IMG/VR virus record: IMGVR_UViG_3300042923_000692
Location: 26,709-90,708 of that record
Strand: one strand, 5' to 3'
Source: a virus
Lineage: Duplodnaviria; Heunggongvirae; Uroviricota; Caudoviricetes
DNA length: 64,000 nt
The notes below the pieces were generated by a model that was not told the origin of the DNA, searched no databases, and worked only from the letters and a program-made list of their open reading frames with translations. The translations under genes were made by a program, and so were the position numbers. Below, one piece after another: positions 11,010-37,632 of this stretch (the first letter of the stretch is position 1; each line of letters opens with the position of its first letter).

Positions 11010-11430
11010 TTGTCCCCTTTCAAGAGATACCCATAATTGTGACCACAAAAAGATAGGGTATGGGGGCCGCGCCGATAGCCGACGAGACCCCCATATAATC
11101 AGGCGCCCGAGAATGATCCCGGGAACAGTTCCAGCTGTCTGTGACTTCGCCACCTCTGGAAAGGCGCTTATTGGTAACATAGTTACCTGCATATATACCT
11201 GATAGCGCGGTTTTAACTAACTCATCCACAGGGGGGCCTAACCCCCATAAACTTTCGGTGCGGCGCCACACCGCTCACGTACCGGCTGCTGCATGATACA
11301 ACCTGCCATTACCCCAAGTATCACAGGGGCACCGATACCGCACTGGACCTAAGAGCTATTTAAACTCGTCCAGTCGAGTTCCCACATACCGAAGATCTGG
11401 GAGTAGGTCAAACCTTCGGGCTGAAGGATA

Positions 11431-11727
11431 CTACGCCGCGATCTCCGCGTCAGCTTCCGCAGCGGGTGCTGCAATCTTAAGGTGCTTCTCAAGCAGGATA
11501 GGATTGTATCCCGTCCAAGTGATCGTCTCACCAGTGGACTCATCCACAACCTTGATGACCGGAGCCTGAGCCACCTCGAGAACGGTCTTGAGAGCATCCA
11601 CGATATCCACGGCGCTTGCGTGGGTGAAGTCCTCATATCCGTTCGCCTTGAGCCAACGCTCGGTAGCTGTACACTGCACGCAAGCGGGCTTGCTATACAG
11701 AGTGACCTTCTTCTTCGCCATGTTCAT
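11431..11727 (-). CDS. nrdH: NrdH-like glutaredoxin
   Basis: 98 aa; VTLYSKPACVQCTATERWL redox motif. Confidence 0.75.
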   Translation of the reverse strand: MNMAKKKVTLYSKPACVQCTATERWLKANGYEDFTHASAVDIVDALKTVLEVAQAPVIKVVDESTGETITWTGYNPILLEKHLKIAAPAAEADAEIAA

Positions 11728-28130: not shown

Positions 28131-28139
28131 ATCGTTTCG

Positions 28140-28212
28140 CTCCTACACCAGGACTCGAACCTGGAACCAACGCATTAACAGTGCGACGCTCTGCCAATTG
28201 AGCTATGTAGGA
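28140..28212 (-). tRNA. tRNA-Asn (anticodon GTT), canonical order
   Basis: cloverleaf: acceptor TCCTACA/TGTAGGA, D-arm GCTC-AATTGGCA-GAGC, anticodon loop CTGTTAA, T-arm CCAGG-TTCGAGT-CCTGG. Confidence 0.7.
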
Positions 28213-30855: not shown

Positions 30856-30887
30856 CGGTTACTCCCATTTTGATTGAATTGACGCAG

Positions 30888-30956
30888 TACTTACGACGGG
30901 ATTCGAACCCGCATCCTAAGCCAGAGGCTCAGCTCTACCAGTTAAGTTACGTAAGT
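30888..30956 (-). tRNA. tRNA (canonical order; anticodon uncertain, possibly TCT/Arg)
   Basis: acceptor ACTTACG/CGTAAGT, T-arm GCGGG-TTCGAAT-CCCGT; D and anticodon arms irregular. Confidence 0.45.
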
Positions 30957-35499: not shown

Positions 35500-35576
35500 G
35501 GGATCCTCCTTTCGGTCAAACAAAAGTGAAAGGCGCAACTGGCGGGTTGCGATGTAGTCCTTTCGGTCTACCCTTT

Positions 35577-35604
35577 CACTATAGGGCTTGCAATTCTTGC
35601 GAGG
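35577..35604 (-). promoter_or_regulatory. conserved promoter-like motif (copy c)
   Basis: CCTCGCAAGAATTGCAAGCCCTATAGTG upstream of the GNAT gene. Confidence 0.4.
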
Positions 35605-36299: not shown

Positions 36300-36464
36300 C
36301 TACTTCGAGGTCTGGATGATGTAGAGCTTCTCGATCTTGGTCGTTCCGGGGAGGGGCTTGCACGTGCGGTGCTTCCGAATCTGGTGGGTGATACCAGCGG
36401 CGGTTGCGGCGACGGCGACTCCTGCAGCGGCGACGATCAGTTTGATCTTGGTGTCTTCGTTCAT
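36300..36464 (-). CDS. 54-aa membrane peptide
   Basis: ORF absent from the track; MNEDTKIKLIVAAAGVAVAATAAGI... Confidence 0.45.
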   Translation of the reverse strand: MNEDTKIKLIVAAAGVAVAATAAGITHQIRKHRTCKPLPGTTKIEKLYIIQTSK

Positions 36465-36484
36465 GGTTAGTCCTTTCGAGGGGT

Positions 36485-36514
36485 GTCATTATATGCCCTG
36501 TGAAATCTGCGAGC
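36485..36514 (-). promoter_or_regulatory. conserved promoter-like motif (copy e)
   Basis: GGCTCGCAGATTTCACAGGGCATATAATGACAC + CCCTCGAAAGGAC. Confidence 0.45.
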
Positions 36515-36520
36515 CAAAAA

Positions 36521-36633
36521 CCATAAGAGCTGTATCTTGCCTGGTATCAAGGCGTTTAAGCTACTCCATTGCTGATCCGCTTGCCTGGTAAATCAAGGCG
36601 TTTAAGCTACTCCTTTGCCGCGGACTCTTATGG
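36521..36633 (-). ncRNA. candidate small structured RNA or iteron element with its own promoter and U-run
   Basis: 9-bp closing inverted repeat CCATAAGAG/CTCTTATGG; two tandem 33-34-nt direct repeats (cttgcctggta[a]atcaaggcgtttaagctactcc); T5 immediately downstream on the minus strand; no ORF. Confidence 0.4.
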
Positions 36634-36662
36634 TCATTATAGTGCTTGTGATTCATGCGACG
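36632..36662 (-). promoter_or_regulatory. conserved promoter-like motif (copy f) driving the ORF-less element
   Basis: GTCGCATGAATCACAAGCACTATAATGACC. Confidence 0.45.
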
Positions 36663-36667
36663 ACCTC

Positions 36668-36700
36668 GCGAAAAAAGGAAAGGGCTCCGTAGAGCCCCGT
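36668..36700 (-). terminator. intrinsic terminator
   Basis: GGGGCTC-TACG-GAGCCC + TTTCCTTTTTT. Confidence 0.55.
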
Positions 36701-36703
36701 CCG

Positions 36704-36835
36704 TTAGTCGAACTCGGGATGGTTGAGATTGTCGAAGAGACGCTCAGCATGGCTCCTACCCAGAAGCTCGATGACGACATCGTAGATGTCTTCTTCGGGC
36801 TGGTAGATGGTAGGGGCGGACTGCATTGTCTTCAT
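36704..36835 (-). CDS. 43-aa acidic peptide
   Basis: ORF absent from the track; MKTMQSAPTIYQPEEDIYDVVIELLGRSHAERLFDNLNHPEFD; own promoter and terminator. Confidence 0.4.
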   Translation of the reverse strand: MKTMQSAPTIYQPEEDIYDVVIELLGRSHAERLFDNLNHPEFD

Positions 36836-37093: not shown

Positions 37094-37113
37094 GATGGTT
37101 CCTTTCGATCTGG

Positions 37114-37144
37114 TGTCGTTATAGGACCTGTGATTAGTGCGAAA
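37114..37144 (-). promoter_or_regulatory. conserved promoter-like motif (copy h)
   Basis: GTTTCGCACTAATCACAGGTCCTATAACGACACC + AGATCGAAAGGAACC. Confidence 0.4.
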
Positions 37145-37200
37145 CATTTCATGGAAAACCCCACCCGGGGAAATTTTTGAAAGGGGTTGTGGCTTTCGCG

Positions 37201-37246
37201 CAAAACGGAAGGAGGTCCCGGCAGCGGTTAAGCTACTAGGACCTCC
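37201..37246 (-). terminator. terminator-like hairpin
   Basis: GGAGGTCC...GGACCTCC 8-bp stem then TTCCGTTTTG; loop contains GGTTAAGCTACT, the motif also found in the 36521..36633 repeats. Confidence 0.4.
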
Positions 37247-37289
37247 TCCCATTTTGATTGAATCTGCCGAATAGTGGCCGATGCCGGCT

Positions 37290-37580: not shown

Positions 37581-37603
37581 GGGGTCTCCTTTCAAGAGAT
37601 GGG

Positions 37604-37632
37604 TGTCACTATAGGGCTTGTGATTCTCGCGT
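37604..37632 (-). promoter_or_regulatory. conserved promoter-like motif (copy i)
   Basis: CACGCGAGAATCACAAGCCCTATAGTGACACCC. Confidence 0.45.

Follow-up and report, generated by a model that had tools for sequence, protein, structure and literature searches.

In a Count-like phage the tail genes are followed downstream by an array of very small genes, and this array raises a simple question: one of its promoter copies has no gene behind it, so what might an orphan promoter of this kind be for? The element lies in the window, by which is meant the whole stretch of 64,000 nucleotides that was analysed, and an initial annotation had singled it out as a promoter copy followed by two tandem repeats, a closing inverted repeat and a run of T. 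Relative to a Count-like phage genome the window reads as the reverse complement, the genes of this region all being on the minus strand, and its source is the JGI metagenome contig Ga0456364_0000501 (95.6 kb). Microbacterium phage Count (MH153801) is a lytic phage of cluster EL with 51.4% G+C, compared to ~69% G+C in its host (PMC7302621), and no other isolate resembles the window over an extended length, the nucleotide identity being 74-81% in patches. The 5.6 kb surrounding the element are identical in the Logan assembly of SRR35185192, a sample that is perhaps not independent of the JGI metagenome, and because of this identity the element is no assembly artefact.

The products of the array are mostly single-pass membrane peptides, none of which has a Pfam or PADLOC family, and the element's neighbours are tiny membrane proteins, WhiB and GNAT. 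Each gene unit runs from a terminator hairpin through a T-run, a promoter block and a short leader (AAAGGA) to the ATG, the leaders ending in CTCTGAAAGGA followed by 6-9 nt and then the ATG. The 29-nt promoter block is present in 6-7 copies within 2 kb, and the features TCGCA-N13-TATA(A/G)TGAC recur in all of the copies, whether of this phage or of its relatives. On the plus strand (37602-37614 (+) and other copies) the block reads GGTGTCACTATAG, which is one base off the core of the SP6 RNA polymerase promoter; the orientation of this reading is opposite to the genes and Count is without an annotated phage RNA polymerase, the likeness probably being a coincidence. Between the WhiB and GNAT acetyltransferase genes (window ~35520-35604 (-)) there is also a conserved structured leader, in the order promoter, GAAAGGGUAGACCGAAAGGACUACAUC, hairpin, T-run, Shine-Dalgarno (SD) sequence and ATG, in which compensatory changes between relatives preserve the pairing of both hairpins; it has the look of an attenuator or riboregulator.

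The orphan promoter and the sequence behind it

The orphan promoter that the initial annotation had noted is intact and has every feature common to the family. Alone among the copies of the array it has no leader, SD and ATG after it, with ~105 nt of non-coding sequence standing in place of leader and ORF (Table 1). The cassette ends as every gene cassette does, with the 3' arm of a stem, a T-run and the CTCGCA of the next promoter, the T-run directly abutting that promoter as had been described. The inverted repeat that closes the element was given as 9 bp and is indeed there, but its length is 10 bp (ACCATAAGAG and CTCTTATGGT), or 12 bp with G-U pairs, and the complementarity score between the start of the cassette and the sequence before the T-run was reached in 0.05% of shuffles. 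Likewise two tandem repeats are present, but they are longer than the 33 nt first proposed, at 37 and 39 nt, and differ by an indel of 2 nt instead of one, the end of the copy placed at 36568 being at 36567. They are identical at 36/39 positions (92%), differing by one mismatch and the one 2-nt indel (AA), and have a period of 44-46 nt, of which only 37-39 nt are repeated. The 16-mer core of the repeat occurs exactly twice, and when up to three mismatches are allowed there are 3 matches against 0.31 expected.

It is apparent that no credible ORF fits within the element, as was first thought. The sole minus-strand ORF of at least 30 aa (36656..36561, 31 aa) begins inside the promoter spacer, and the 44-46-nt period places the two repeats in different reading frames. 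UUG-initiated mini-ORFs of 11 and 27 codons were considered and rejected, the GGAG spacing being 13 nt and the frames continuing across the T-run and across the promoter that follows. Repeats, inverted repeat and motif recurrence are each above chance, and all the parts described initially are present with small coordinate corrections; by its layout the element is a putative gene-less mini transcription unit, with its own promoter, two tandem repeats and a T-run.

Table 1. Location of the element, of the features around it and of the ORF-less cassettes in related phages
Feature	Position	Strand	Details
Upstream 43-aa gene	36704..36835	(-)	Orthologue of Count gp38
Intrinsic terminator of the 43-aa gene	36670..36698	(-)	Hairpin GGGGCTCTACGGAGCCC then TTTCCTTTTTT; -18.1 kcal/mol
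Orphan promoter block	36634..36662	(-)	TCGCA, 13 nt, -10 TATAAT at 36641..36636, GAC
Inverted repeat, 5' arm	36625..36634	(-)	RNA sense ACCAUAAGAG; starts 2 nt past the -10 hexamer
Direct repeat 1 in RNA order	36580..36618	(-)	39 nt, GCAAAGGAGUAGCUUAAACGCCUUGAUUUACCAGGCAAG
Direct repeat 2 in RNA order	36536..36572	(-)	37 nt, GCAAUGGAGUAGCUUAAACGCCUUGAUACCAGGCAAG
Inverted repeat, 3' arm	36520..36529	(-)	CUCUUAUGGU
Run of five U in RNA sense	36516..36520	(-)	Directly before GGCTCGCA of the next promoter
Next promoter copy	36482..36515	(-)	-10 at 36493..36488; normal leader GACACCCCTCGAAAGGACTAACC then ATG
Downstream gene of a 54-aa single-transmembrane protein	36300..36464	(-)	Orthologue of Count gp39
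Long terminator hairpin	37201..37256	(-)	Apex with third motif copy CCUAGUAGCUUAACC; -34.8 kcal/mol
Type a cassette	L202-L204		~105 nt; after 56/57-aa gene
Type b cassette	L205		~120 nt; after 56/57-aa gene
Type c cassette	L196/L197		~125 nt; after 56/57-aa gene
Type d cassette	L193		~185 nt; replaces 43-aa gene cassette

A third copy of the motif, GCGGTTAAGCTACT at 37224-37237, matches at 13/14 positions and lies in the apex of the long terminator hairpin, and TTAAGCTAC has 3 occurrences against 0.22 expected. The recurrence of an 11-nt core in this hairpin had been noted initially and is there, but its GCUAC part is in relatives a covarying stem and not a conserved motif. The hairpin itself is kept in Count and in the relatives L007 and L194, with both inner and outer stems covarying and the apical loop UUAAC(C/U) constant. 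In the same region (window 37100-37256 (-)) the hairpin is followed by a conserved spacer, TTTCAAAAATTTCCC.GGTGGGGTTTTC, and then by a promoter-like remnant that is without a -10.

The end of the element is a weak one. The local hairpin before the T-run has a predicted -6.3 kcal/mol and is not adjacent to the U-run, the terminators of neighbouring genes ranging from -11.5 to -34.8, and the terminator scan called no canonical intrinsic terminator at the element. Compared with shuffles the predicted stability of the fold gives z = -0.49 and -0.81, or +1.0 with the RNA starting 7 nt after the -10, thus the element is predicted to fold no more stably than shuffled sequence; in the centroid fold the GGAGUAGCUUAAAC segments are unpaired. 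The 5' arm of the inverted repeat would lie mostly outside the transcript because it starts so close to the -10 hexamer, and an RNA begun ~7 nt downstream of the -10 would retain only ~5-7 nt of it.

Searches for known RNA families and targets gave little. On the element Rfam had no match at an E-value up to 10, with the relatives' cassettes also blank in both gathering and permissive scans, and ARAGORN, including its relaxed and mitochondrial modes, found no tRNA or tmRNA. BLAST against phage (50,697 records) and plasmid (72,556) collections gave no match to the element at E-values up to 10. Likenesses to 5S rRNA, SRP RNA and tmRNA were considered and are without Rfam support. For antisense targets the best ungapped duplex score within the 64-kb window, ~31 kb of the contig lying outside it, was 28, and the shuffles averaged 32.6 and reached 44 at most. 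The ten neighbours hold no ToxN/AbiQ, CptN, TenpN or Cas protein by Pfam and PADLOC.

The window does have other RNA features. There is a match to the Pistol self-cleaving ribozyme at 11312-11379 (-), with 42.7 bits against a gathering threshold of 34.5 (Rfam), which sits in a ~240-nt gap after a gene ending at 11431, and there are a tRNA-Asn(GTT) at 28139-28212 (-) and a tRNA-Arg(TCT) at 30887-30956 (-). Among the genes of Count are those of an RtcB-like ligase and of another RNA ligase.

Cassettes without genes in related phages

At the orthologous junction, between a gene of 41-43 aa and one of 54-59 aa, Count, IMGVR_UViG_3300020181_000018 and ~10 metagenomic relatives have one terminator and one promoter in a gap of ~90-100 nt. 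The element is absent from all of the ~12 relatives that are readable there and for this reason is judged to be an accessory insertion, the 54-aa gene being found in all relatives without it. In the initial annotation a lack of conservation of the repeats was one of two observations that would together count against it, and the repeats are indeed absent from every relative examined here. Both promoters that flank the element look like orthologues of the relatives' single promoter, with one resembling that of Count and the other that of L007. If just the segment within the inverted repeat were removed then two tandem promoters would be left, an arrangement found in no relative. As the relatives have a single promoter and none has tandem promoters, the inserted unit would include the promoter, being a promoter plus non-coding body and not a bare MITE.

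The neighbourhoods of homologues of the 54-aa protein were retrieved and compared, and four further types of ORF-less cassette, each running from promoter to T-run, were found in the same small-gene array of relatives (Table 1). The turnover of these is best seen among genomes that encode an identical 57-aa protein (L201, L202, L203, L205, L206). They differ in nothing but this: L201 and L206 lack a cassette, in L202 one of type a lies within flanks 97-100% identical to those of L201, and between L203 (type a) and L205 (type b) there is a clean replacement within flanks 96-100% identical. Coding cassettes are swapped likewise, a 41-aa gene against a 53-aa gene. These alignments show coding and non-coding cassettes alike being gained, lost and swapped at the repeated junctions of terminator and promoter, in a turnover that is recent, and the element is one such insertion. 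When all five cassettes were compared by BLAST with every family locus, none was found to have a source sequence there.

The ORF-less cassettes are diverse, unrelated in sequence, mostly weakly structured and short-lived. In four of the five the start is complementary to the sequence before the T-run (shuffle fractions 0.0005, 0.003, 0.002 and 0.023); in types a and c this complementarity extends into the -10 hexamer and therefore would not be wholly inside an RNA started ~7 nt past TATAAT. Types c and d have in common ACGU.GAAA.CGUAUUCU.AG. Type d (L193 2174-2375; L207, which is Mudcat, 1165-1280; L208, which is Ingrid, 1160-1300) has matches of 76-83% identity in gaps of ~36 Arthrobacter phages, thus it spans phages of two host genera. 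These matches are unannotated in most of the phages, and in Ingrid and Loretta they lie beneath the reverse-strand hypothetical gene 41. Its stems keep their pairing via double changes when aligned by hand, UCCGU/ACGGA against UAGGU/ACCUA and UUACGU/ACGUAA against UAAUGU/ACAUUA. Given the Arthrobacter phage matches and the compensatory changes in the stems, type d appears to be a conserved structured RNA, at least one in the class, and is a candidate for a new phage RNA family. In Arthrobacter phage Mudcat the homologue of the L193 cassette is arranged as a promoter, a leader of ~95 nt, a T-run and the gene 38 SD, and a second promoter is missing. In Ingrid a further ORF-less promoter cassette (~1085-1150) has a tRNA-like T arm, GCGGTTCGAATCCGC, beside a 7-bp acceptor-like stem (GGTAAGG/CCTTGCC), and was not called by ARAGORN or Rfam.

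Comparison of the genomes demonstrates, at the level of the letters, the anatomy of the element, its status as an insertion and a class of junction-bounded, rapidly exchanged ORF-less cassettes. A parallel can be drawn with PeSL (promoter-early stem-loop), which are mobile regulatory cassettes of T4-type phages (PMC2839356, PMC4122927). In both, composite terminator-promoter motifs are repeated between small accessory genes, and these motifs bound the indels and replacements seen between close relatives. The likeness is one of layout, and a relationship in sequence is not to be expected. The host belongs to another phylum, the promoter sequence and the type of phage are likewise different, the phage here being a siphovirus of Actinobacteria, and unlike PeSL some of the cassettes exchanged here are without any ORF. 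Promoter-driven phage ncRNAs and mobile promoter-terminator cassettes are thus already known. Exchangeable cassettes without an ORF, which would be new, we did not find described for these actinophages, nor were these promoters or cassettes found in the Microbacterium and Arthrobacter phage genomics literature.

Occurrence of the motif elsewhere

The repeat of the element is related to part of one other cassette. The type c cassette of L196 is identical to the window repeat at 21/25 positions and shares with it the exact 11-mer AGTAGCTTAAA, the two cassettes having in common the motif GGAGUAGC..AAAC.CCUU. Type c contains UGGAGUAGCC-AAACUCCUU-AUAC, in the form of a perfect GGAGU/ACUCC hairpin, and also CCUAGUAGCUUAA, the same as the apex of the window hairpin that holds the third motif copy. 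In ~170 kb of family DNA GTAGCTTAA has only 4 occurrences, all of them on the sense strand and all in non-coding sequence, and an nhmmer profile run against all DNA of the comparison set found no new members of the motif.

Further afield, an exact-word scan of viral contigs gave one homologue, L002, and a scan of metagenomes gave only its relative L015. These belong to an unrelated phage lineage of proteobacterial type and carry the 22-mer GGAGTAGCTTAAACGCCTTGAT (28/31 with flanks), for which a rough estimate of chance occurrence is 1e-2 to 1e-3. The 22-mer lies there in a divergent intergenic region with iteron-like repeats, and L002 and the window have no protein in common. It is part of a G+C-rich non-coding patch of ~100 nt within AT-rich intergenic DNA (L002 940-1060; L015 260-380), and this patch has 1 difference in ~100 nt while its flanks have diverged.

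An exact 18-mer scan of 185,579 GTDB species genomes gave 7 single scattered matches and found no tandem array and no actinobacterial match, a diverged host copy being one that such a scan would let escape. The complement of the motif encodes IKAFKLL, a motif of ThrRS, and 3/7 of the genome matches are thrS. An origin from thrS, or an antisense role towards it, was rejected, the similarity being convincing over only 21-27 nt and the L196 homologue having frame-breaking indels. Actinobacterial ThrRS presumably differs at the IKAFKLL motif, which was counted against such an origin, and the thrS match is treated as probable coincidence.

Possible roles of the element

The explanation that fits best is that the element is a mobile ncRNA cassette, either a small RNA or a long leader, which displays a duplicated motif and is likely to be a decoy or regulator acting in trans. 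This is put forward tentatively, at somewhat short of an even chance, and the estimate is a joint one for an active orphan promoter, a short ncRNA, partial read-through, a working motif and a role in trans. The element would be an accessory ORF-less expression cassette of a Count-like (Microbacterium cluster EL-type) lytic phage, in which the orphan promoter would fire to give a short ncRNA. With so weak a terminator some of the transcripts would probably run on into the 54-aa gene, to which they would form a long 5' leader. The RNA would display two copies of GGAGUAGCUUAAACGCCUUGAU, which holds a Shine-Dalgarno-like GGAG and is predicted to be unpaired, and this duplicated motif would be the working part. 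Its most likely function would be to act in trans, as decoy or regulator, on a factor of the host or of a rival and not on the phage's own mRNAs.

A small regulatory RNA with duplicated binding sites had been among the candidates of the initial annotation. The anatomy fits it, and it is strengthened by the presence in related phages of further ORF-less cassettes, of which one has a homologous motif. Against it are the weak terminator, the shuffle-like fold, a 5' arm that is mostly upstream of the likely start, and its absence from relatives. There is precedent in the mycobacteriophages L5, D29 and StarStuff, in which the abundant Pleft RNA and the D29 63-64 intergenic RNA were found by RNA-seq and Northern blot (PMC5712189). 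These too are intergenic RNAs of actinobacteriophages with no conserved ORF and a phage promoter; they differ in that they are proven as transcripts, that of the element being a predicted one, and are without tandem repeats. The comparison of the element with the phage collection found no sequence similarity to the L5, D29 or StarStuff RNAs, and the tandem-repeat element matches no described family.

The main rival is that the element is neutral recombination debris, with recombination, either illegitimate or at the junction, having duplicated the promoter and trapped filler, slippage having duplicated ~45 nt, and the result being tolerated without function. It fits with this that the element is missing from every relative, that ORF-less cassettes turn over fast and are sequence-unrelated and weakly structured, that no target, family or host match was found, and that the promoter remnant after the 37201-37256 hairpin means that decayed junctions exist. 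Yet the promoter is fully intact and the two repeats are still 92% identical, the layout of inverted repeat and T-run recurs in independent cassettes, and the motif is common to the L196 cassette and an unrelated viral lineage. The type d cassette is moreover conserved in phages of two host genera, and on balance the debris explanation is considered unlikely, though it is the most serious of those opposed to the ncRNA cassette.

A role in cis is the less probable alternative that follows. Read-through would give a long 5' UTR of the 54-aa gene with the repeats as sites for binding or attenuation, or else the element would only stop RNA reading through from upstream, as an insulator. The weak terminator is consistent with the former, as is the Mudcat homologue of the L193 cassette, which is the leader of gene 38 with no second promoter, and as is the conserved structured leader with a T-run that precedes the GNAT gene in all relatives. 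For the insulator there is the point that the full 5' arm would be present only in RNA started upstream. However, a complete promoter and leader already belong to the 54-aa gene, which in all relatives is expressed from these alone, and a strong terminator (-18.1 kcal/mol) is already in place 30 nt upstream of the orphan promoter. The cis-acting leader RNAs lambda nut and HK022 put lie just after phage promoters. They resemble the element in being directly downstream of a promoter, in a terminator-rich array and with two repeated modules, but the element has no conserved hairpin pair, is absent from relatives with the same terminators, and no partner protein was identified for it.

A more far-reaching version of the trans-acting RNA is that the cassettes are exchangeable RNA counter-defence genes, that is promoter-driven decoy RNAs mimicking a host RNA ligand and swapped at the terminator-promoter junctions as hosts change. 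In such a scheme the two UUAAAC sites would release one 46-nt monomer that is like a type III antitoxin and is pseudoknot-capable. This is regarded as a long shot.

Of comparably low probability is that the 37/39-bp repeats act as DNA, as iterons or operators for replication, partition or repression, another candidate of the initial annotation. Two near-identical long direct repeats do lie between two promoters, and the homologous 22-mer of L002 and L015 sits beside iteron-like repeats in a divergent intergenic region. The proposal found no support, for there are no further copies in 64 kb apart from the partial one in the hairpin apex and no sequence-specific binder was identified among the neighbours, which are membrane proteins, WhiB and GNAT. 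In addition the repeats are absent from relatives with the same replication genes, so they form no essential origin, the spacing within the repeat varies by 2 bp, and L002 is without any protein that it shares with the window.

Equally improbable is direct mimicry of a defence RNA, either a type III antitoxin (pseudo-ToxI-like) or a CRISPR-repeat mimic (Racr). A promoter, tandem repeats of 44-46-nt period and a T-run match the layout of type III antitoxin loci (PMC5086642), and phage PhiTE pseudo-ToxI, in which phage repeats occur without the toxin, is a precedent (PMC3475682). The ToxI, CptI and TenpI arrays and PhiTE pseudo-ToxI have, like the element, a promoter, short tandem repeats of similar period and a terminator-like end (PMC5086642, PMC3475682). 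Two UUAAAC sites bound exactly one full unit, unit 1 can by hand be drawn as an H-type pseudoknot (GCCU/AGGC + UGAUUU/GGAUCA), and the element is accessory in a fast-turnover locus. Set against this, no ToxN, CptN, TenpN or Cas protein is nearby, the gene downstream instead being that of the 54-aa membrane protein. The 7 single genome matches by exact 18-mer (in 185,579 genomes) include no tandem array and none in Actinobacteria, no host counterpart thus being found. Only 37-39 nt of the 46-nt period are repeated, unit 2 is unable to form the pseudoknot, and the terminator is weak. Racrs and viral mini-arrays are likewise small non-coding repeat units with their own promoter in accessory phage loci (PMC10651486), but here the exact-word scan found no CRISPR array with this repeat, the 7-11 nt between the repeats are too short for a spacer, and there is no conserved CRISPR-type hairpin. 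Finally, a MITE bounded by 10-bp terminal inverted repeats is barely credible, since, although the inverted repeat at the ends is perfect and relatives lack the element, there is no target-site duplication (flanks ...CCAAAA and CATTAT...), the 64 kb hold just one copy and the collections of phages, plasmids and viruses hold none, and excision would leave tandem promoters, which are seen in no relative.

Even if the element should prove to be debris it would still document promoter-terminator junctions that make and erase sequence in near-identical phages. If it is transcribed and functional, then the hypervariable small-gene arrays of actinobacteriophages would exchange ncRNA genes besides tiny proteins, by recombination at the junctions in a manner like that of PeSL, and were the counter-defence reading to be true the locus would be an RNA-based anti-defence island in actinophages. 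Gaps of this kind are routinely left unannotated or lie under spurious reverse-strand ORFs, as with gene 41 of Arthrobacter phage Ingrid. The signature of an orphan promoter with no SD or ATG, followed by a T-run and the next promoter, could be used to look systematically for small RNAs of phages, and anti-defence decoys may be among these.
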